A stretch of 64,000 bases of DNA, from assembly GCA_030827135.1 (NCBI GenBank), contig JAURFE010000001.1:26569-90568 (forward strand), in the 5' to 3' direction. This document shows positions 41,781 through 62,192 of the stretch, in pieces. The number at the start of each line of letters is the position of its first letter. The stretch's first letter is position 1. The notes beneath the pieces were generated by a model that made no database searches, was not told the DNA's origin, and was given only the letters and a program-made list of their open reading frames with translations. The position numbers were made by a program, and so were the translations under genes. This DNA comes from Vicinamibacterales bacterium (GTDB lineage: Bacteria; Acidobacteriota; Vicinamibacteria; Vicinamibacterales; SCN-69-37).

Positions 41781-42340
41781 GACTCCAACATCCGTTTCAG
41801 ATTCCCAAGTGCGTGAAAAAAATTTGCCTTGGCGGCCCCCACGGTTCCCCCGAGGATGGCCGCAATCTCCTCGTGGGAGAGTTCCTGATACACACGCAAC
41901 ATCACGGTCGCCCGCTGCTTCGCCGGCAGTTGGGCGATCGCCCGCCGGACATCGGCGGCCCGCTCGCCGCGCGCCACCATGCCGAAAGCGTCGTCCGACC
42001 GCTCGTCCACATGACGCGCGGCGTCGAGCGGTTCAATGCCCGGACGGACGAGCGCGGCGCGATTCAGACACACATTCACCGCGACGCGGTGCAGCCAGGT
42101 TGACAGCTTTGCGTCGCCCTTGAACGCCTTCAGGCCTTTGAAGGCGCGCACAAACACGTCCTGCGTGAGATCCGCGGCGTCCTCGTGATTGCGCACGAAC
42201 CGGTAGCACACCTGATACACCCCACGCTGGTGCCGGGCGACGATCGTGTCGAACGCCGCGCGTTCCCCATCCACAAACGAACGCACGAGGGCGAGGTCGT
42301 CCAGCGCCGACAGGTCGGCTGTCACCTTCGAGTCGGTCAC
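41777..42340 (-). CDS. ECF-type RNA polymerase sigma-70 factor
   Basis: Region 2 (YQVCYRFVRNHEDAADLTQDVFVRAF) and region 4 (LPAKQRATVMLRVYQELSHEEIAAILG). Start placed at GTG 42340, which makes a GTGA overlap with the pfkB-like stop. The longest ORF reaches 42400. Confidence 0.85.
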   Translation of the reverse strand: MTDSKVTADLSALDDLALVRSFVDGERAAFDTIVARHQRGVYQVCYRFVRNHEDAADLTQDVFVRAFKGLKAFKGDAKLSTWLHRVAVNVCLNRAALVRPGIEPLDAARHVDERSDDAFGMVARGERAADVRRAIAQLPAKQRATVMLRVYQELSHEEIAAILGGTVGAAKANFFHALGNLKRMLES

Positions 42341-43368
42341 TCCCCGTCCCCACGCTCCGGCGCGCCTGACAACGGCGGCACCGTCTGCTCCCGTCCCCAT
42401 GTTTCCTTAGACCGGCGAAGGGGGCTCTGCGTCACAAAATGCTGCAGTTCCGCCCTCGTCGGCAGGCCGGACTGGGCGCCGCGCCCGCGGCAGTTCAGGG
42501 CCGCCGTCGCGTTTGCGAGGTCCAGAAAATCGGACCACAGACCGCCGGTCCAGGGGTCCAGGAGTCCAGGGGTCCAGAAGTCCCGGGGTCCTGGAGGCCC
42601 GGGGTTCAAGAGCGCCCAGATCAGGCCGGCTCGGAAGGCGTCGCCGGCGCCGGTGGTGTCGGTGACGGGCACGACGTAGCCGGGGGCATAGTGTTCGGTC
42701 TCGCCGTCCCAGGCGATGGCGCCGTTCGCGCCGAGGGTGGCGACGACGACGCGGGCGGCTGAGGCGGCGTGGAGGTGCCGGACGTCTCCTGACAGCGGTT
42801 CGGACACGACGAGAATGTCGACTTCGGCGAGCAGCGCATCGAGGCCCGGCACCTGCGCGTCCACATCGGCGACGGTCAGCACCCCGGCTGCCCGCGCAGC
42901 GCGGGCCATGCGTGCCGACGCATGGGGTTCGGTCGCGTCGACAAGGAGCACCTTCGCGCCGAGCACGGCGTCGACAGGCACGTCATCTCCCCACAGCAGG
43001 GCGTCATCGCGGTGCCACAGCACGGTACGCGTCTGAGCGGCGGCGTCCACAATGATCATCGCCGTTCGCGTCGAGCCCTCGGCGGTTCGGCACCAGGTAC
43101 GGTCAACGCCTTCGCGTGTCAGCGCGTCACAAATGACCGCCGCGTGGCTGTCGGTCCCGAACGCGCCGATGTACCGAACCGAGAGGCCCAGCCGCGCGCA
43201 CCCAACCATCGCCGTCGCGATTTGCCCACCAGGTAGCGTCTCGAGTGACTCGAGCCGCGCCTTCCCATCGGGCGGCGGCAACCCGGCGACCGTGGCGACC
43301 AGATCGACCGAGTTCTCGCCGAAGCCGACGACGTCCCACGTGCGTTGACTTTCGCCTTCCCTTTGCAT
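42337..43368 (-). CDS. PfkB-family sugar/nucleoside kinase carrying a repeat-encoded insertion
   Basis: 343-aa ORF. GFGENSVDLV near the N-terminus and the DTTGAGDAFRAG anion-hole motif. A ~25-aa insertion (NPGPPGPRDFWTPGLLDPWTGGLWSDF) follows that motif. Confidence 0.85.
   Translation of the reverse strand: MQREGESQRTWDVVGFGENSVDLVATVAGLPPPDGKARLESLETLPGGQIATAMVGCARLGLSVRYIGAFGTDSHAAVICDALTREGVDRTWCRTAEGSTRTAMIIVDAAAQTRTVLWHRDDALLWGDDVPVDAVLGAKVLLVDATEPHASARMARAARAAGVLTVADVDAQVPGLDALLAEVDILVVSEPLSGDVRHLHAASAARVVVATLGANGAIAWDGETEHYAPGYVVPVTDTTGAGDAFRAGLIWALLNPGPPGPRDFWTPGLLDPWTGGLWSDFLDLANATAALNCRGRGAQSGLPTRAELQHFVTQSPLRRSKETWGREQTVPPLSGAPERGDGE
42547..42610. repeat. octanucleotide tandem array (GGTCCAGG-like, 8 units) inside the PfkB-family gene
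   Basis: ggtccagg ggtccagg agtccagg ggtccaga agtcccgg ggtcctgg aggcccgg ggttcaag. Confidence 0.8.
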
Positions 43369-43986: not shown

Positions 43987-44310
43987 ATGTCCACTCCTGC
44001 CAAACAACTGAGCTTCACGATCGTCCCGGACGAATCGGCGGACAGCCCCCGCACTTACGCCAACTTCTGCGCGGTCGGGCACACGCCGTTCGACATGACC
44101 CTGACCTTCTGCGACGTGCGGCCGCTGTCGGAACGCGACATCAAAAACGCCGAAGAGCATCAGACCGTGAAGGCGCCGGTCGTGTCGCGCATCGCCCTCC
44201 CCTTCAGCGTGGTGCCCGGCCTCATCAATGCGCTCCAGGAACAGATGCGCTCCATGCAGGATGCCCAGGTGCAGCAGTCGCAGGGCTGGCCCCAGGGACC
44301 GCTCCACTAG
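43987..44310 (+). CDS. DUF3467-like protein
   Basis: 107-aa ORF starting 2 nt after the lexA stop (YANFCAVGHTPFDMTLTFCDV). Confidence 0.7.
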   Translation: MSTPAKQLSFTIVPDESADSPRTYANFCAVGHTPFDMTLTFCDVRPLSERDIKNAEEHQTVKAPVVSRIALPFSVVPGLINALQEQMRSMQDAQVQQSQGWPQGPLH

Positions 44311-44365
44311 ATGAGCGGATGGGCAGTTGGGCGGATGGGCGGCTGAGTTGTTGGGCGGCTGATGG
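44310..44365. repeat. G-rich 8-bp-periodic tandem array (GATGGGCG-like, ~7 units)
   Basis: gatgagcg gatgggca gttgggcg gatgggcg gctgagtt gttgggcg gctgatgg. It fills the DUF3467-nth intergenic gap and runs into the nth ATG. Confidence 0.6.
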
Positions 44366-45415: not shown

Positions 45416-45478
45416 CATGTAGGGCCCGCTGGGTTGGAGCGGGCCAGTCATGTAGGGCCCGCTGGGTTGGAGCGGGCC
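45416..45478. repeat. two tandem REP-like palindromic elements (CATGTAGGGCCCGCTGGGTTGGAGCGGGCC x2, 33-bp period)
   Basis: Each copy folds as GGCCCGCT-gggttgg-AGCGGGCC (8-bp stem). Lies between convergent genes and overlaps the last codons of the GNAT gene. Confidence 0.8.
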
Positions 45479-52792: not shown

Positions 52793-52845
52793 GACGCGCT
52801 GAACCTGAGCGCGTCATCGCCTGGCGCGCTACAACCGAGCGCGCT

Positions 52846-53160
52846 CTACACGGGCGCGTCGGCCCCGCACTTCCAGCACGCCGTGAACTGTGCCTCGACG
52901 AGTTCGCCGCAGGAGGCACAACGCCAGAGACGGCTGGCTTCGAGGCCTGTCGGGCCCTGCTGCCGCAACAGCGCCGCCGCCTCGGCGGCGCGCGCATCGT
53001 CGAGCACCCAGAGTTCCGGCCTCGCCTCGTTGACCGGCACGCCGCCGCTGGCGCCGAACAACGACTCGTGCCGAATCTCGCTCTCGATGCCTGCGGTGTC
53101 GAGCACGCCCTTGAAGAAGTGCGCCTCGGCCGGGTGCTGCGCGATGAACACGCGAATCAC
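52846..53160 (-). CDS. DUF2007-like protein with C-terminal zinc ribbon
   Basis: 104-aa ORF (MIRVFIAQHPAEAHFFKGVLDTAGI...; CASCGELVEAQFTACWKCG). Confidence 0.7.
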   Translation of the reverse strand: MIRVFIAQHPAEAHFFKGVLDTAGIESEIRHESLFGASGGVPVNEARPELWVLDDARAAEAAALLRQQGPTGLEASRLWRCASCGELVEAQFTACWKCGADAPV

Positions 53161-53183: not shown

Positions 53184-53402
53184 GTGGCCTTCCAGCAGGA
53201 CCCCTTCATCGTCGAAATCATCCGGCCGGCCACCGACGAAATCACGGTCGTGGACGTGCTGGTGGGATCACTCGGCGTGGCGGGCGCGCTGGCCCTTGCC
53301 GCGCTTCCGCTGGGGGCACTTGCCGGCTGGCTGTTGATTCGCTGGAAGCAGCGACGACGGCCGGAGGATGACCACATGCCCTCGATCCAGCACCCCAAGT
53401 AG
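53184..53402 (+). CDS. hypothetical small membrane protein
   Basis: 72-aa ORF with one TM helix (LVGSLGVAGALALAALPLGALAGWLLI). Its GTG start lies 6 nt after a TATAGT hexamer. Confidence 0.4.
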   Translation: MAFQQDPFIVEIIRPATDEITVVDVLVGSLGVAGALALAALPLGALAGWLLIRWKQRRRPEDDHMPSIQHPK

Positions 53403-53438
53403 ATGGGCGGCTGGGCGGATGGTTAGATGTGGGTTCTG
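53399..53438. repeat. G-rich 8-bp-periodic array (GGGCGGMTG-like)
   Basis: gtagatgg gcggctgg gcggatgg ttagatgt gggttctg. Spans the gap between the small ORF and the pepA stop. Confidence 0.45.
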
Positions 53439-54931
53439 AGCCCGAGTTCCACTAACGTGCGCACCGCCACGCCGGTCGCCCCTTTGGCCTGATAGGCGCG
53501 GCGTTCTTCGGCCCAGGCGGTGCCGGCGATATCGAGGTGCGCCCACGGGCGGTCCTTCACGAACTCGCGCAGGAACATCGCTGCCGTGCTGGCTCCGGCC
53601 CAGCGCCCCGCGGAGTTGAGCATGTCCGCGATCTCGCTCTTGAGGAGTTCGCGATATTCCTCGTGCAGCGGCAGGTGCCACAAGCGGTCGCCCGCCAAGG
53701 TGCCCGCGTTCTGCACGGTCTCCACCCAGGCATCCGGCGTACCGAAGAGGCCCGATGACGTGCGCCCAAGCGCCACCATGCACGCGCCCGTCAACGTCGC
53801 AATGTCGACCAGATGAGTGGCGCCGAGTTCCTGCGCGTACCAGATGGCATCACCGAGGATCAGCCGGCCCTCCGCATCGGTGTTGATGATTTCGACCGTG
53901 GTGCCGCTCGCCGCGGTCAACACGTCGCCCGGGCGCACAGCCTTGCCGCCCACCATGTTCTCCGCCATGGGGATGACCCCGATCACGCGGCGCGGGGCCT
54001 TGAGCAGGGCCAATGCCCGCATGGCGCCGGCCACAGCGGCGCCACCGGACATGTCGTATTTCATCCGCTCCATGCCTTCGGCCGGCTTGATCGACACGCC
54101 GCCGGTATCGAAGGTGATGCCCTTGCCGATGAAACCGAGCACCGGAGACGCCGGGGCGCCGGGCGGATCGTGCCGGATCACCACCAGGCGCGGCGGCTCG
54201 GCACTGCCCTGCGCCACCCCGAGCAACATGCCCATCTTCAAGGCACGAATCTGCTGCTCGTCGAGCACCTCGACCTTCAGGCCCACCTCGGTGGCCACGG
54301 CGGCCACCCGCTCTGCAAACACCCGGGGCGTCAACACGTTGGAGGGCTCGTTCGCCAGCTCGCGCGTGACGTTGGCCGAGGCCCCGAGCGTGCGTCCGCG
54401 GAACACCGCCTCGGCCAGCGCCGTCGGGTCGGCCGCGGGCGACACGATGACGATGCGCTCCGGAAAACCACGGGTATCGCGATCGGACTTGTAGGTCCCC
54501 GCGTCGAACTCCGCCGTGGACATCCCGTCGGCGCCAATTTCGGCCACGCGAATCGGATCCAGTCCGGCGCGCACCACAAACGCGGCAGACCGCGCGGACC
54601 GGATGCGCGCCGTGTAACTGCAGGCCGCCGCCACCCGGCGCAGGCGTTCGGCATCGGCGTCCTCGCGCCGTCCCGCTCCCACGAGCGCCAGACGCAGGGC
54701 CCGGTACGGCCCGCCAGTGACCCGCGCGATGAACAGTTCGTACAACCGGCCACGAAACTCTGACGACTCGCGTGCGCGCGAGATATCGCCGCCTGTGGCC
54801 GTGTCCAGCCCCGGGAGATCCTCAAGCGGGTCCGTGCCTTCGAACACCGGCACAAACAACATGTCGACGTCGACTGATTCCGGCTTTCCCGCGACACCCG
54901 AATATTCAGGTGATGCCTTCTCGTGCCCCAA
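53423..54931 (-). CDS. pepA: leucyl aminopeptidase (M17)
   Basis: 502-aa ORF with a TTG start. N-terminus aligns with E. coli PepA (EYSGVAGKPESVDVDMLFVPVFE). Catalytic motif NTDAEGRL. Confidence 0.9.
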   Translation of the reverse strand: MGHEKASPEYSGVAGKPESVDVDMLFVPVFEGTDPLEDLPGLDTATGGDISRARESSEFRGRLYELFIARVTGGPYRALRLALVGAGRREDADAERLRRVAAACSYTARIRSARSAAFVVRAGLDPIRVAEIGADGMSTAEFDAGTYKSDRDTRGFPERIVIVSPAADPTALAEAVFRGRTLGASANVTRELANEPSNVLTPRVFAERVAAVATEVGLKVEVLDEQQIRALKMGMLLGVAQGSAEPPRLVVIRHDPPGAPASPVLGFIGKGITFDTGGVSIKPAEGMERMKYDMSGGAAVAGAMRALALLKAPRRVIGVIPMAENMVGGKAVRPGDVLTAASGTTVEIINTDAEGRLILGDAIWYAQELGATHLVDIATLTGACMVALGRTSSGLFGTPDAWVETVQNAGTLAGDRLWHLPLHEEYRELLKSEIADMLNSAGRWAGASTAAMFLREFVKDRPWAHLDIAGTAWAEERRAYQAKGATGVAVRTLVELGLRTHI

Positions 54932-54976
54932 CGCGCTGCCCCTTTGGTAGACTGCCGAGTAACCGTGAGATCACCC

Positions 54977-55402
54977 ATGTTACCCCGGCTGGCCTGGCTC
55001 CTCTGCCTGGTTGGTACACTGATCGTCTTTCCGACCTGGCCCCCCGCGGTGTCCGGCGATGGGGCCCAGGGCAAGGGCAAACCGAAGGCCGCGCTGCGGG
55101 TGAACCCGGCCCTCATTTTTGTGCCGCAGCGCATCGTGGCCACCGCAGAACTGACCGGCGGCGCCGACGATTTCCAGGACTACTATTGCCCCAAGATCGA
55201 GTGGATTTGGGACGACACCACCACCTCGGAGTCTACTGAGGACTGCGCAGCCTATGAACCCGGCACGAGCACCATCCGGCGCCGGTACACCGCTGACCAC
55301 ACCTACAAGGATCCGGGCAACTACGACGTCGTCTTCCGGATGAAACAGGGCAGCAAGATCGTCCTGTCACTGCGCCAGACGGTCCGCGCGCAGGGACACT
55401 AG
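54977..55402 (+). CDS. hypothetical secreted protein with PKD-like motif
   Basis: Start taken at MLPRLAWLLCLVGTLIVF. Contains HTYKDPGNYDVVF. Confidence 0.55.
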   Translation: MLPRLAWLLCLVGTLIVFPTWPPAVSGDGAQGKGKPKAALRVNPALIFVPQRIVATAELTGGADDFQDYYCPKIEWIWDDTTTSESTEDCAAYEPGTSTIRRRYTADHTYKDPGNYDVVFRMKQGSKIVLSLRQTVRAQGH

Positions 55403-55467
55403 GGGTCCAGGGGTCCAGGGGTCCAGGGGTCCAGGGGTCCAGGGGTCCAAGGGGTCCAAGGGGTTCG
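55402..55467. repeat. octanucleotide tandem array (GGGGTCCA x5, then GGGGTCCAA x2 and a degenerate unit)
   Basis: Read directly from the sequence. It begins at the stop codon of the upstream gene. Confidence 0.85.
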
Positions 55468-55493
55468 TAGGGCGCGCTGGGTTGTAGCGCGCC
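55468..55493. repeat. REP-like palindromic element (TAGGGCGCGCTGGGTTGTAGCGCGCC)
   Basis: 8-bp stem GGCGCGCT/AGCGCGCC with loop gggttgt. Same family as 45416-45478. Confidence 0.7.
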
Positions 55494-55513
55494 ACCTCAC
55501 GCAGCGCGCCACT

Positions 55514-57442
55514 TCAGGTGCGCAGTTCGTCCCGATCCGCAAAGTACCGGAGCGCGTCGGGATTCGCGAGCGCCTCGCGGTTCTTCACGGGCTGACCGTG
55601 AATGACGTTACGCACGGCCAGTTCGACCAGCTTGCCGCTCTTGGTTCTCGGCAGTTCGGGCACCTGAAGAATCTTCGCGGGAGCGTGCCGCGGCGACGTG
55701 TTCCGCCGGATCTGCGTCGCGATGGCCTTCCGCATGGTGTCGTCGAGCACAAGCCCGTCACGCAGGCGGACGAACAACACGATCCGCTCGTCCCCCTCCC
55801 ACTGCTGCCCGACGGCCAGACTTTCGATGACCTCCGGGAGTTGCTCCACCTGCCGGTAGATCTCGGCGGTCCCAATGCGCACACCGCCGGGGTTCAGTGT
55901 CGCATCCGACCGCCCGTGGATCACAAACCCACCGTGTGCGGTCCGTTCGGCCCAATCCCCATGACACCAGGCACCAGGAAACCGTTCGAAATACGCGGCG
56001 CGATACTTGTCGCCGGCCGGATCGTTCCAGAATCCAATCGGCATCGACGGAAACGGAGCCGTGCACACCAGTTCGCCCTGACCGCTTCCGGGCACCACAG
56101 ACTTGCCGTCGCCATCCCACACGTCCACGGCCATGCCCAGCCCCGGCCCCTGAATCTCGCCGCGCCACACGGGCTCGGTCGGCACACCGCCAACAAAACA
56201 ACTCACGATGTCGGTGCCGCCGGAGATCGACGCGAGATGGACGTCCGCCTTGATGCCGTCGTACACAAAATCAAAACTCTCCGGCGACAGCGGGGATCCG
56301 GTGGACGTGATCGTGCGGACGGTGCCGAGGTCGTGTGTCTCACGCGGCCGAAGCCCGGCCTTCGCCACGGCATCGATGAATTTCGCAGACGTGCCAAACA
56401 ACGTCACGCCATGCGCCTGCGCGAGATCAAACAGCCGACTTCCATCGGGATAAAACGGCGAGCCGTCATACAAGACGATGGTCGCGCCGGATGCGAGCGC
56501 CGACACCAGCCAGTTCCACATCATCCACCCACAGGTCGTGAAGTAAAACACGCGGTCGCCGGCCCGCACGTCAGCGTGCAACTGGTGTTCCTTCAGGTGC
56601 TGCAGGAGCGTGCCGCCATGGCCATGCACGATGCACTTGGGCACGCCGGTCGTCCCCGACGAATACAGCACGTACAGCGGGTGGTTGAAAGACACTCTGG
56701 TCCAAAGGTCCAGGGTCCAGGGTCCAGGGTTCGCGGTCCAGGGGTCCAGAGGTCCAGAGGTCCTGGAGTCCACGATGAACGTCTGACGGAGTGTCGGGAG
56801 TCGTGTCGTGATCTCGCTGAGCTTCGGCCGACAGTCGTGATACTTGCCGCCGTAGTGATAGCCGGCAACGGCGACGAGGACCTTGGGTTCAATCTGGCCG
56901 AACCGATCGATCACGCCCTGCACACCAAAATCCGGTGAGCACGACGACCAGACCGCGCCGAGTGAGGCCGCGGCAAGCGCGGCAATGACGGCCTCGGGCA
57001 CGTTCGCCATAAATCCGGCGACCCGATCCCCCGACTCCACGCCGGCCGCGCGGAACGCCGTCGCGCACGCCGCGACCTCACGGCGCAACTCGCGCCACGT
57101 CAGCCGACGCTCCTCGCCGGTTTCATCCACCGCCAGAATCGCCAACCCCTCGTCATCGCGGCGCAACAGGTTCTCGGCGACGTTGATGCGCGCGTCCGGA
57201 AAAAACTGCGCCCCGGGCATTTGGTCGCCATCCACAACCGGGCGCGCACCCTTGTCGCCGACCACTCCGCAAAAATCCCAGATCGCGGACCAGAACTCGG
57301 CACGATGCGTGATGGACCATGCGTGAAGCGCGTGGTAGTCGGGAAACGCCTGCCCCGTCCGGGCGGTGACCAAGGCTGTGAAACGGGACAGCGCGGCGGC
57401 GTCGATTCGCGCCGGGTCCGGGGTCCACAGCGGGCTCGCCAT
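55514..57442 (-). CDS. acetoacetate-CoA ligase (acetoacetyl-CoA synthetase) carrying a repeat-encoded insertion
   Basis: Start at [10 protein letters not shown] (ATG 57442). AMP-binding motif [14 protein letters not shown], preceded by the repeat-derived segment [20 protein letters not shown]. Confidence 0.9.
56699..56774. repeat. degenerate GGTCCAG(G) tandem array (7-9-bp units, ~10 units) inside the acetoacetyl-CoA synthetase gene
   Basis: ggtccaaa ggtccag ggtccag ggtccag ggttcgc ggtccag gggtccaga ggtccaga ggtcctgga gtccacg. Confidence 0.8.
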
Positions 57443-57449
57443 TTCCGGG

Positions 57450-58298
57450 TCAGGCTTTCTTGAGCGCCCGGGCGCGCTCAAACAGGTCGCGCACGGAGGG
57501 CGCATCCATCAGCGCCTGCGACGACGTTGGAAGTTTGGCGGCGATGCCGTGTAATGCCTCGGCAATGAAGTCGGCGTTGGTGGAGAGGATGCCCTGCCAC
57601 ACGTCGGACGAACTGGAGGCCAGACGCGTCATGTCGGCAAACCCGGACCCGGACCAGGCCACGCCATCTGGTCCAACCGCTTCCCCCGACGCCGCCATCA
57701 AGGCGGTGGACACCACTTGCGGCGCGTGGCTCACGTGCGCCATCACGCGATCGTGCGTGACGGCATCGGTCCACGAGGGCTTTGCGCCCAGAGCCACAGT
57801 GAAGGTGGTCAGCATCGCTTCCACGGCGTCCCCCGCGTCGTCCGCGCCGCCCGTCGTCGCGGAGACCAGCAGCCATGGTTTGCCGTCGAACAGATCCGCG
57901 CGCGCGGCCGCGAGTCCTGAGGATTCCGATCCTGCCACGGGATGTCCCCCCACAAAGGTTAATCGCGTACGCGCGGCAGCCTCCATCACAGTGCGCTTCG
58001 TGCTTGAGACATCCGTCACCAGCGCGCGAGTGCCGGTCAGCGCCAGCACCTCGAGCACATGCGGCACGGTCTGCACAGGGGTGGCGATGATGATGAGGTC
58101 GGAGGCCGTGAGGTCTTCGATGTGATCGACGACTGCGGTAATCGCTCCCTGGGACACCGCCTCGTGCGTGATCGGCGCCGGGTCACACGCGGTGATGTGC
58201 AACCCGGGCCAGCAGCGGCGGGCCGCCAGCGCCACGGAACCGCCGATCAGGCCGAGCCCAATGATGCCGACGCGCTCAAAGGGCGGCGCCCCGATCAC
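57450..58298 (-). CDS. tyrA: prephenate/arogenate dehydrogenase
   Basis: 282-aa ORF with a GTG start. NAD motif ([10 protein letters not shown]) and GGHPVAGSE. Confidence 0.85.
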
Positions 58299-59572: not shown

Positions 59573-60351
59573 CCCTTCAGCCATCGCACAAACGTGCCGG
59601 CCGCGCGCGCTTCATCGCCCGGCGCGGCCTCGGCGATGACCTGCACCAGCGCGCTGCCGACCACCGCGGCGTCGGCATACGCACACGTTTCGCGCACGTG
59701 CTCGGGTTGCGAGATGCCGAACCCCAGCGCGACCGGCACATCCGTCACCGCGCGGATCTGATCCACCACCGGCCGGGCCGTTCCGGCCACCGCGTCACGC
59801 GCGCCGGTGACGCCCAGTCGGGAAATCGCATAGAGGAACCCGCGCCCGAGACCCGCCGCCGTCCGCAGGCGTTCGGTCGTCGTCGTCGGGCTGATGAGAA
59901 AGATCATGTCGAGCCCTCGACTGTCGAGGGCCGCGTGCATCTCGCCGGCCTCCTCAATCGGGAGGTCCAGCAGCAGCACGCCGTCCACGCCGGCCGCCGC
60001 GGCCGCCTCCACAAACCGCGCCGTGCCCATCCGCGCGACAGGATTCACGTAGGTGAACAAGACGATCGGCGTTTCAATCGTCGCCCGCAGATCGTCCACC
60101 ATCGCCAGCACGGATGTCAGCGACGTCCCTGCCGCCAGCGCCCGTTCTGACGCCCGCTGAATCACCGGCCCATCGGCAATGGGATCCGAAAACGGCACGC
60201 CGATCTCAATGACGTCCGCGCCGGCCTCAGCGATCGCGCGCACCACCGCTTTCGATCGATCCATATCCGGATCGCCCGCGGTGATGTAACAGACCAGGCC
60301 GGCTGTTTTCTCGCGCCGGATCCGTGCGAATGCCTCCGCGAGCCGGCTCAT
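59569..60351 (-). CDS. trpA: tryptophan synthase alpha chain
   Basis: 260-aa ORF ([18 protein letters not shown]...; GFGISQPEH). Confidence 0.95.
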
Positions 60352-62192
60352 CGCCCACCCCCGGACCCCTGAACCTGAAGAAGTTCTCGCACGGTGTCGA
60401 CGTCTTTATCCCCTCGCCCCGAGAGGTTGAGGATCACGATGGCACCTGCCGGAAAGTCCTTGAGATGCTCCTGCACCCAGGCCGCCGCGTGAGACGACTC
60501 CAACGCCGGCAGCAGGCCTTCATTGCGTGCCAGCCACGTAAACCCGCGCAACGCGGCGTCATCGTCGACCCACGCGTATTCCGTGCGCCCGATGGCGGCG
60601 AGATACGCGTGTTCGGGTCCGACGGACGGATAGTCGAGACCGGCCGAGACCGAGTGTGTCGGGAGGATGTTGCCGTGTGCGTCCTGCAGCAGCAGGCTCC
60701 GAGTGCCGTGCAACACGCCGGCGACGCCGCCGGCAAACCGCGCCGCGTGTGCCCCATCGCGAATCCCGCGGCCGCCCGCCTCGACGCCGATCAACCGTAC
60801 GCCGGAGTCGGCCACAAACGCGTCAAAAATGCCCATCGAGTTGCTGCCTCCGCCGACGCAGGCGACGACGGCATCGGGCAGCCGGCCGGTGTCCCGCAGC
60901 ACCTGGGCGCGGGCCTCCGCACCGATGACCGACTGAAACTCGCGCACCATCAGGGGATACGGATGCGGCCCGAGCACCGACCCGAGGACGTATGCCGTGG
61001 TCGCCACGTTCGCCACCCAGTCGCGCATGGCTTCGTTGATTGCATCCTTCAACGTTCGACTGCCTCCGTCCACCGAGGCCACGGTCGCTCCGAGCACCCG
61101 CATGCGGAACACGTTCAGGGACTGGCGCGCCATGTCGTCGGCCCCCATGTAGACCACGCACTCCAGACCGAGCAACGCACAGGCAGTCGCCGTCGCCACA
61201 CCGTGCTGGCCCGCGCCGGTTTCAGCCACCACCCGGGTCTTCCCCATCCGGCGCGCCAGCAACACCTGGCCGACGGCGTTGTTGATCTTGTGTGCGCCCG
61301 TATGCGCGAGGTCTTCACGTTTGAGAAAGATGCGGACGCCGGACGCCCCGGCCAGGTGTGACGCCTCGTAGAGCGGCGTCGGACGGCCGACAAACGTCGA
61401 CAGCAGGTGTTGCAGCTCTGCGACAAACGACGGCTCCGTCCGCGCGGCGAAGTAGGCCGTCGTCAATTCCTCCACAGGCGCTACCAGCGTCTCGGGGATG
61501 AACCGGCCGCCGAATTCGCCGAAGTACCCGCGCGCATCGGGGTCACGCATGCCGAAGGATGGGCGGATGGGTGGATGGGTGGATGGGTGGATGTTGGCCA
61601 TGAGTTCCTTAATACGGGCGTGGTCCTTGATGCCGGGGCAGGATTCGATGCCTGACGACACGTCGATGCCCCAGGGGCGCACGGCCGTGACGGCGGCACC
61701 CACATTCGCGGCCGAGAGACCTCCGGCAAGCAGGATGGGGCGTGCTGCGGCAATCCGGGCAGCCATGGGCCAGTTTGCCGCTCGCCCTGTGCCGCCGTGT
61801 TGGACGGGATCGTGCGCGTCCACGAGCACGATGACGGACTGCGGTACTGCGAGTGCGGCACACACGTCGGCGTCGGACTGCGGTGCGATGGCTTTGATGA
61901 CCTGCACCCCGAGGGAGAGATACTCGCGCGCGTCCTCGCGGCCGTGCAGTTGGACGGCCGTGAGTCCGGCGAGGCCGACCACCCGCGCGACCTCGGCCAC
62001 CGGGGCATCGACAAACACGCCGACCTTCATCACGCGCGACGGCACGCCAACGGAGATTGCAGCAATCTGTTCCGGCGTGATGGCTCGCGGGCTGCCCGGC
62101 CACAATACAAACCCGAGCGCGTTCGCGCCGGCGGCCACGGCCGCGTCCACATCCTCACGACGTGTCAGTCCGCACATCTTGACGACAGTCAT
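60348..62192 (-). CDS. trpB: single ORF encoding phosphoribosylanthranilate isomerase (TrpF, aa 1-~197) followed by tryptophan synthase beta (TrpB, from ~aa 215)
   Basis: 614-aa ORF. TrpF (VKMCGLT...[16 protein letters not shown]), a linker [15 protein letters not shown], then TrpB ([15 protein letters not shown]...HTGAHKINN). No stop between the two. Internal ATGs at 61601 and 61550 could start TrpB independently. Confidence 0.9.
61557..61596. repeat. octanucleotide tandem array GGATGGGY x5 at the trpF/trpB junction
   Basis: ggatgggc ggatgggt ggatgggt ggatgggt ggatgttg. On the coding strand it encodes the [10 protein letters not shown] linker. Confidence 0.85.

Follow-up and report, generated by a model that had tools for sequence, protein, structure and literature searches.

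In-frame remnants of a dispersed GGACC-core repeat probably fill a variable loop of an acidobacterial acetoacetate-CoA ligase

Within the gene for an acetoacetate-CoA ligase of a Vicinamibacterales bacterium (Acidobacteriota) lies a short, degenerate tandem repeat that is read in frame just before the AMP-binding motif of the enzyme. The gene is part of a 64,000-nt stretch of assembly GCA_030827135.1 (contig JAURFE010000001.1, positions 26,569 to 90,568 of the forward strand), which was analyzed as a whole, is called the window below and is numbered from its first letter. Our analysis suggests that the repeat segment is passenger DNA, i.e. the in-frame remnant of a repeat element with 7-8-nt units around a GGACC core, often led by a GAACC variant unit. 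The segment probably acts as a neutral, repeat-derived filler of a loop, with modules that were copied from a dispersed intergenic repeat and have since degenerated and become frozen. In the acidobacterial clade concerned (the named relatives are Vicinamibacterales) the repeat is mostly intergenic, where it forms clean arrays of variable length after stop codons, or hairpins between convergent genes.

Results

The ligase gene and its repeat array

The enzyme is a full-length match to the NCBIfam acetoacetate-CoA ligase family TIGR01217 of the ANL superfamily (925.8 bits, cut-off 520.9) and to NF002937 (970.2 bits, cut-off 639), and the Streptomyces structure PDB 4WD1 matches residues 21-655 at E = 2e-184. 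The mechanical open reading frame (ORF) runs from 55514 to 57505 on the minus strand and has 663 codons for amino acids. In all 34 orthologues the start coincides with M22, and the gene itself probably comprises 642 residues (Table 1). The M22 codon occupies 57440-57442, and the 21 codons of the extension (57443-57505) are probably untranslated. A look-up of the 663-residue protein returned no exact record, because gene callers start at M22. Together with the translation and the orthologue alignment, these matches bear out the initial annotation, which had placed a repeat family in frame inside acetoacetyl-CoA synthetase, and they show the enzyme to be intact and conserved. The distance it gave to the AMP-binding motif is also exact: the nine residues SFNHPLYVL separate the end of the repeat (RV) from the P-loop motif (Y)SSGTTGxPK, in which none of the residues S, S, G, T, T, G, P and K varies among 35 sequences (alignment A1).

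Tandem Repeats Finder reports the array at 56699-56772 with a period of 7, 8.9 copies, 78% matches and a score of 68; a second row with a period of 16 is the same array. On the minus strand its units follow each other as GGACTCCA GGACCTCT GGACCTCT GGACCCCT GGACC GCGAACCCT GGACCCT GGACCCT GGACCTTT GGACC, and they include three perfect heptamers, (CCTGGAC)x3. Eight GGACC cores and one GGACT are packed into 56699-56774, i.e. within 80 nt, at a spacing of 7-14 nt, so that the "about ten units of 7-9 bp" counted initially were a slight overcount of an essentially correct observation. In 200 second-order Markov simulations of the window the largest cluster held only 2-4 cores, as opposed to the 8 observed. 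The GGTCCAG(G) unit is found at just two other places in the 64 kb, 42547 and 55401. The coding array is not palindromic. No Rfam family was detected at E <= 0.1 within 54500-58000, and no promoter-like or intrinsic-terminator-like site in 55300-55600.

A clean octamer of this family is open in every frame. On its C-rich strand each of the three phases gives LDPWTPGP, and this accounts for the WTPGP/LDPW peptides both in the ligase and in a kinase described below.

Table 1. Coordinates of the ligase gene, of the repeat arrays and of associated elements (window coordinates unless a locus is named)
Feature	Position	Strand	Details and basis
Acetoacetate-CoA ligase gene	55514..57442	-	642 aa from M22 (probable); TIGR01217, 4WD1, orthologue lengths and alignment
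AMP-binding P-loop motif	56636..56665	-	9 residues after the repeat-derived stretch
Degenerate tandem GGACC-core array, in frame	56699..56774	-	units of 8, 8, 8, 8, 14, 7, 7, 8 nt; Tandem Repeats Finder, sequence, simulations
Block 1 of the array	56735..56771	-	GGACTCCA GGACCTCT GGACCTCT GGACCCCT GGACC; 8-nt units; 5' of the ancestral Trp codon and merging into it
Block 2 of the array	56699..56732	-	GAACC head + (CTGGACC)x3 + TTTGGACC; in place of the ancestral FLAPYxPGxIAFE segment
Clean intergenic array	55401..55464	+	(AGGGGTCC)x6 + two 9-nt AAGGGGTCC variants; Tandem Repeats Finder, sequence
In-frame copy in PfkB-family kinase ORF 42337-43368(-)	42547..42605	-	GAACCCC head + GGACC units; reads NPGPPGPRDFWTPGLLDPWT
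In-frame array in TrpF-TrpB linker, ORF 60348-62192(-)	61557-61593	-	GGATGGGT on +, CATCCACC on the sense strand
Other octamer arrays	44310; 53402; 61557		GATGGGCG at 44310 and 53402 (intergenic), GGATGGGT at 61557; Tandem Repeats Finder
GTAG-tagged REP-like hairpin	55467..55493	+	GTAGGGCGCGCTGGGTTGTAGCGCGCC; beside the intergenic octamer array
GTAG-tagged hairpin family	45419-45445; 45452-45478; 52823-52849 (-); 55467-55493		GTAGGGCSCGCTGGGTTGNAGCGSGCC; 4 copies vs 0 expected
32-nt element	L121 3955-3986, 4009-4040; L006 4817-4848; L125 1187-1218; L126 1780-1811		copies in relatives

Intergenic copies and copying between sites

The clean array of the window starts at 55401, inside the TAG codon that ends ORF 54923-55402(+); the array and the stop of the ligase are about 50 nt apart. 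Evidence for copying comes from L122, the locus of an orthologue with 78% identity, whose ligase linker contains GAACCTTGGACCGTGGACCCATGTCGGACCCTGGAC, which is not a pure tandem repeat. This coding insert and one arm of an intergenic hairpin about 1.2 kb downstream of the ligase agree in 35/36 positions (E = 6e-15), and the other arm, in inverted orientation, agrees with it in 32/36. The L122 hairpin folds at -60.3 kcal/mol (z = -8.0) and its counterpart in L006 at -57.6 kcal/mol (z = -5.7); the intergenic array of the window has no excess fold. Modules are shared in the same manner. GAACCNTGGACCCTGGACC is present in block 2 of the window's ligase, in L005 both within the ligase and immediately behind its stop codon, and twice in the L125 kinase, and the GAACCCTGGACCCTGGACC module of block 2 recurs 3' of the L005 ligase stop and twice in the L125 kinase. 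One and the same element is thus found in coding and in intergenic DNA, as shown by the L122 insert and by the modules in ligase and kinase. In this small sample, loci with GGACC arrays in the ligase also have intergenic GGACC arrays; L124, with three cores only, has none that attains four.

The spacer between the ligase and its convergent neighbor (equivalent to 55403-55513 of the window) holds an array that abuts the stop of the convergent gene in L005, L006 and L119-L124. The neighbor encodes 137-146 residues and has no assigned function. The units of the spacer array differ by lineage, being 8-, 7-, 9-, 16- and 17-mers (CTGGACCC, CCTGGAC, GAACCYGTY x12, a 16-mer and a 17-mer), and in L122 and L006 the array forms a hairpin of about 90 nt and about -60 kcal/mol. 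The idea that GAACC marks a distinct head of the element was dropped, since Bradymonadales show CCTGAACC as an ordinary variant unit at array ends; GAACC is, as judged from these arrays, a variant unit that marks a recognizable module.

Strain comparison

Contigs L001-L004 belong to four independent assemblies (ENA, JGI) and encode P0001, a ligase protein of 99% identity; L003, a near-identical relative of the window, is from a freshwater metagenome. Over the 150 nt of the linker region that were compared, the window and all four contigs agree base for base. The number of CTGGACCC units in the intergenic array downstream of the ligase does differ: the window and L001 have 6 and L002-L004 have 7, a live copy-number polymorphism of one 8-nt unit among assemblies with an identical ligase protein. 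The clean intergenic array still slips between near-identical strains, and the degenerate coding array is frozen. A coding array that stays constant while the intergenic array varies argues both against mis-assembly and against phase variation; the disruption of the ORF by an assembly artefact, which the initial annotation had named as a possible objection, is contradicted by an intact ORF and by nucleotide identity in five assemblies. Metagenome scans for further alleles with a gapped pattern and with a 24-nt anchor gave 0 matches and missed even the allele known from a JGI contig, so that the scanned collection does not contain this organism and the scans are uninformative.

History of the linker

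Across 34 orthologues (63-99% identity) the region between RPKL.. and ..PKCI varies from 59 to 82 residues within highly conserved flanks. It has 67 residues in the window vs 62 in repeat-free orthologues of about 70% identity, which follow the pattern IPD(S/Q)W(D/E)xFLAPYxPGxIAFE. Aligned with Streptomyces 4WD1, it shows a gap of 4 in the query and of 1 in the subject, which makes the linker of the window 3 residues shorter; Streptomyces carries LDW at the homologous position. The repeat-free linker of L123 reads IPDQWDAFLAPFEAAGIAFE (QWDAFLAPFEAAGIAFE), and no GGACC cluster occurs in 22 kb of this locus. In DNA alignment A3 the TGG ACC GCG of the window (W-T-A of LDPWTA) is aligned with TGG ACC GCT in L124 and with TGG GAC GCC in L123. 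As the TGG codon is shared with the repeat-free L123, the tryptophan at 56738-56740 is ancestral.

The two blocks of the array differ in their distribution. Homologues of block 1 are found in L124 (74%) and L119 (72%), both of which have kept the ancestral FLAP.. segment, and block 2 is common to the window and L005 (87%), with counterparts in the clade at 75-79% identity. FLAP.. has been lost to repeat modules in the window, L005, L120, L122, L006 and L121, and repeat blocks with differing unit numbers are present in orthologues down to 72-74% identity. As these alignments read, repeat DNA has both been inserted into the linker and replaced ancestral linker codons, with a net gain of about 5 residues, and the segment is evidently an old one that has been remodelled repeatedly. 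Of the insertion originally proposed, the repeat DNA in the linker stands; a plain net insertion does not, given a linker that is longer than in repeat-free orthologues and shorter than in Streptomyces. The proposed location in a variable linker is corroborated by the range of lengths over the same columns, by the gaps against 4WD1 and by the predicted coil described next. Conserved sequence from unrelated taxa does not explain the segment either: apart from the ancestral Trp-x-Ala codons, it does not align with conserved sequence of other taxa.

The 35-sequence alignment served to build an AlphaFold2 model (numbering from M22; mean predicted local distance difference test score, pLDDT, 83.6; predicted template modelling score 0.81). 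It has no secondary structure between the strands 220-224 and 255-259, and pLDDT falls below 50 at residues 228-241 inside a confident core, the repeat-derived residues being about 226-248. The repeat-derived stretch would fit a disordered loop that is presumably exposed.

Further coding copies and a companion element

A second enzyme of the window, a PfkB-family kinase, carries the same repeat in frame, as the initial annotation had stated without naming the enzyme; across the array the ORF reads ..LNPGPPGPRDFWTPGLLDPWTGGLW... The kinase loop has 69 residues in the window vs 49-53 in repeat-free orthologues, and by this comparison the kinase repeat is a true insertion of 16-20 residues. In relatives the loop carries varying numbers of PWT-type units. 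The kinase loop and the near-identity of the L122 ligase insert with a hairpin arm together uphold the view that the element has entered coding DNA repeatedly. In two kinase orthologues (P0145 and P0150, alignment A2) the same loop is filled by a PGTSGLRD-type peptide with an 8-residue period, which probably derives from another octamer family, GGGACYTC, resembling the intergenic repeat after the L120 ligase (2397-2450).

The ligase linker and the kinase loop of relatives also share a non-tandem element of 32 nt, CGCCTTCGCCAAGGCTWCGGCGGGCAAGCCCC, i.e. CGCCTTCGCCAAGGCT(A/T)CGGCGGGCAAGCCCC, which is absent from the window. A GGACC core directly precedes it in all five copies examined. The element is translated as RLRQG(Y/F)GG(Q/H)A in the L006 ligase and the L126 kinase, as PSPRLRRASP in the L125 kinase and, twice, as AFAKATAGKP in the L121 ligase. 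Since it is read in all three sense frames, conservation concerns the DNA and not the peptide, and selection would act on openness and length only.

A third in-frame array (61557-61593) forms the interdomain linker of a 614-residue TrpF-TrpB fusion. The genes trpF and trpB are separate in L119 (16-nt gap) and L123 and fused in L122 and L124, with differing linkers; that of L122 derives from CATTGCCC octamers. The array at 61557 may have been involved in the fusion of the two genes.

Other arrays of the window and of other phyla

Three intergenic arrays (44308-44362, 53400-53422 and 55400-55464) begin at or inside the TAG stop of a plus-strand ORF. All six octamer arrays are G-rich on the plus strand; this strand is C-rich overall, with a negative GC skew in 14 of 16 bins of 4 kb. 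Two copies of the GTAG-tagged hairpin family form a 33-bp tandem duplication.

The initial annotation had suggested a search for similar segments restricted to this lineage. Such a restriction does not hold for the octamer, which occurs in many phyla according to a cross-phylum scan with one genome per species (matches listed, L007-L118). Among the matches listed for at least three consecutive units, (GGTCCAGG)>=3, Bradymonadales/Persicimonas and a 7.5-Mb metagenome-assembled genome (MAG) labelled 'delta proteobacterium' have many loci each; further matches listed are from Solibacteraceae, Vicinamibacterales, Streptomyces, Acidimicrobiaceae, Isosphaeraceae and others. The typical flanks of the arrays in Bradymonadales/Persicimonas and in the MAG are (GCMGTT)n hexamer arrays and variant units of the form CCTGAACC. 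A protein search with (PGPLDPWT)x5 gave one match of 50 residues only, probably owing to low-complexity filtering, and says nothing on degenerate in-frame copies. In-frame copies in other phyla were considered and not upheld: long ORFs do cross perfect (GGTCCAGG)>=3 arrays, yet in the cases sampled the Pfam domains (Rrf2, GH77, ECF sigma) lie downstream, and the read-through ORFs are probably spurious, with the arrays situated upstream of genes.

Discussion

Origin of the coding array

In the scenario that we consider probable, modules would enter the gene by DNA-level copying from intergenic copies, be it through template switching, gene conversion or illegitimate recombination at GGACC/TGGAC microhomology. 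Replication slippage would then alter the number of units, and selection on the enzyme would keep only total lengths divisible by three. In-frame retention is easy, because no sense frame of the unit contains a stop codon. Point mutations would subsequently break the regularity of the array, whereupon slippage would stop and the array would be frozen. The resulting peptide would merely fill the loop; it would have no separate function, and its effect would be neutral or slightly deleterious.

Several points weigh against this scenario. A transposition signature, i.e. a target-site duplication or a mobilizing enzyme, was not seen, neither having been looked for systematically. The unit in the ligase-downstream spacer changes from lineage to lineage, which shows that arrays can have a local origin too, and some of the coding array could have grown in place around the ancestral CTGGAC..TGG. 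The persistence of repeats at the loop down to 72% identity could mean that they are useful; neutrality is what we infer. Finally, the order and direction in which the two blocks were gained and lost are read from nine loci without a phylogeny.

The strongest form of a local origin would do without any transfer and assume slippage alone, starting from a chance proto-repeat at the ancestral Leu-Asp-Trp/Trp-Thr codons (CTGGAC..TGGACC), with the likeness of the arrays resulting from a lineage-wide slippage bias for the unit. The ancestral Trp codon inside the array, the LDW of Streptomyces at the homologous position and the lineage-specific units of a single spacer agree with such an origin, and octamer arrays in unrelated phyla would suit convergence. 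Slippage alone could hardly, however, produce the insert of L122, 36 nt that are not purely tandem and nevertheless match a hairpin arm at 35 positions. Nor would it explain why the module headed by GAACC turns up in spacers and in a pair of unrelated genes, why the non-repetitive 32-nt element sits in the same two loops and always after GGACC, or why L123 lacks any GGACC cluster in 22 kb while relatives with coding arrays have intergenic ones too. A purely local origin is thus unlikely. At the other extreme stands an active, sequence-targeted copy-and-paste process that moves GGACC hairpin arms and the 32-nt element and repeatedly re-seeds permissive loops of housekeeping enzymes in the clade. 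Its agent would be an enzyme or else template switching driven by structure, with a preference for GGACC/TGGAC sites. Such a process is not our favored reading and has a low probability. If true, it would be a natural generator of length and sequence diversity in protein loops, it could have aided the trpF-trpB fusion, and the octamer shared across phyla would reflect shared machinery and not coincidence. A useful peptide, rich in Trp, Pro and Gly and serving as an interaction surface, a lid or an element of solubility or stability, would explain the persistence of repeat-derived peptides at the loop down to 72% identity and the similar peptides in a second enzyme. Among close orthologues, however, the sequence, the length and even the repeat type of the loop vary; the 32-nt companion is read in three frames with no peptide conserved, the loop is modelled as a low-confidence coil, and clean copies of the same DNA are intergenic. 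We therefore regard adaptation of the peptide as improbable.

The G-rich template strand might instead form a G-quadruplex or another structure that modulates replication, transcription or translation. In the coding array this strand has one GGGG and three GGG runs, the G4 tracts of (GGGGTCCA)n are separated by 4-nt loops, GATGGGCG and GGATGGGT also fit G3+ motifs, analogous heptamer repeats form G-quadruplexes in vitro (PMC4692102), and the G-rich strand is the plus strand in 6/6 arrays. In the coding copy, however, the tracts have decayed and one loop has a length of 11 nt, no Rfam family was matched, and the array alone shows no excess folding energy (z = -0.07). Relatives moreover use units without G runs at the equivalent site, e.g. 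GAACCYGTY in L119, which rules out the G-quadruplex as the common denominator of all arrays. A function at the nucleic-acid level would appear very improbable on these grounds. Still less can be said for a contingency locus, in which copy-number changes of the non-triplet unit shift the frame and bring about phase variation of the ligase. The three perfect heptamers and the strain-dependent slippage of the neighboring intergenic array of the same family are compatible with it. This scenario is nonetheless highly improbable for an array that is degenerate (78% matches), lies in the middle of a gene for a housekeeping metabolic enzyme, is in frame in every orthologue examined and shows no difference among the five assemblies, between which the intergenic array does vary; for analogous repeats phase variation was likewise judged unlikely (PMC4692102). 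Short tandem repeats are error-prone in short-read assemblies, and a mis-assembly or a broken gene might be suspected. The probability of an artefact or pseudogene is close to nil, given the identity of the window with four independent ENA/JGI assemblies, a full-length ORF with all ligase motifs and a conserved gene order.

Comparison with known repeat systems

Rickettsia palindromic elements (RPEs), along with other small elements that are fused in frame with protein genes, are a close analogue. RPEs occur in 19 protein genes, and an RPE-containing guanylate kinase stayed active (PMC2229807, Delihas review; Ogata et al. 2000). As with RPEs, a dispersed non-coding repeat is found here in several unrelated housekeeping genes for conserved proteins, where it keeps the frame open and is tolerated by seemingly functional enzymes, and the intergenic form in relatives is a long hairpin. 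The site is permissive as well, with a hypervariable length and low pLDDT at 228-241, and its surface exposure is predicted. In contrast to RPEs, which are fixed palindromes of 105-146 bp, the modules described here are 19-36 nt of 7-8-nt tandem units or a 32-nt element, change their unit number after insertion and have struck the same loop in many orthologues. The host is a free-living acidobacterium with a GC-rich genome and not a reduced intracellular one. No terminal inverted repeats or target duplications were identified, and the coding copies, being one-armed modules or tandem units, lack the full palindromic form of about 100-150 bp that is bounded by terminal inverted repeats. The coding copies work like RPEs without belonging to the RPE family.

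In their make-up the arrays resemble the dispersed G-rich heptamer repeats GGGAATC of Xanthomonas and GGGGA(C/T)T of Nostoc/Anabaena, the latter of the short tandemly repeated repetitive (STRR) class (Rehm et al. 2015, PMC4692102). Those repeats are 89-93% intergenic and 7-11% intragenic, lie on average 28 nt from the upstream ORF, frequently form convergent inverted pairs, vary in unit number and have no known function (PMC4692102). The repeats studied here likewise have a G-rich 7-8-nt unit at many loci per genome, are mostly intergenic on the sense strand near the stop of the upstream ORF, form convergent inverted pairs capable of stem-loops, vary in copy number and include an intragenic minority. 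In the window, G-rich units of 6-9 nt are present at several loci (42547, 55401 and 56699, with other octamers at 44310, 53402 and 61557), and arrays adjoin TAG stops at 44308, 53400 and 55400; inverted-pair hairpins are found in L122 and L006. Copy number varies in the intergenic array (6 vs 7 octamers), and the coding array is invariant. The differences from the Xanthomonas and Nostoc repeats are the GGTCCAG(G) unit, the other phylum, coding copies that are demonstrably in frame and the module identity of these with intergenic copies. STRRs reportedly also occur inside the RNase P RNA gene of heterocyst-forming cyanobacteria, to go by the title of a 1997 article by Vioque, which would be a comparable insertion tolerated by a working gene.

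Two further classes share single features with the locus. The hairpin beside the intergenic array resembles the GTAG-tagged class of repetitive extragenic palindromes (REPs), a class name taken from Di Nocera et al. 2013 (PMC3733652). With REPs and bacterial interspersed mosaic elements the region would also share a mosaic of different short repeats, while the coding segment itself is no REP hairpin and no REP-associated tyrosine transposase (RAYT) was found, none having been searched for. Like the contingency loci of host-adapted pathogens, the ligase array has a non-triplet tandem unit within a reading frame; unlike them, it is degenerate, mid-gene, strain-invariant and part of a housekeeping enzyme, and no frame-shifting polymorphism was found in the five assemblies. 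In the limited literature covered, no description of in-frame repeats of this kind in Acidobacteria was encountered.

Conclusions

Our results suggest that non-triplet, non-coding repeat DNA can settle permanently inside essential enzymes, here in a poorly studied phylum of soil and freshwater bacteria. A few permissive loops take up repeat DNA and become the fastest-evolving parts of otherwise conserved proteins. Why repeats of two different types should arrive at the same loops is a question that the finding raises. For annotation, such low-complexity stretches should not be mistaken for frameshifts, assembly errors or lineage-specific domains, and for alignment and phylogeny the columns of the loop are not homologous at the residue level. 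For protein engineering the loops are places at which ANL ligases and PfkB kinases accept 5-20 additional residues, with hardly any constraint on their sequence. The concept of 'selfish DNA in protein-coding genes', known from RPEs, would also come to include tandem repeats with short units in genomes that are large and GC-rich.

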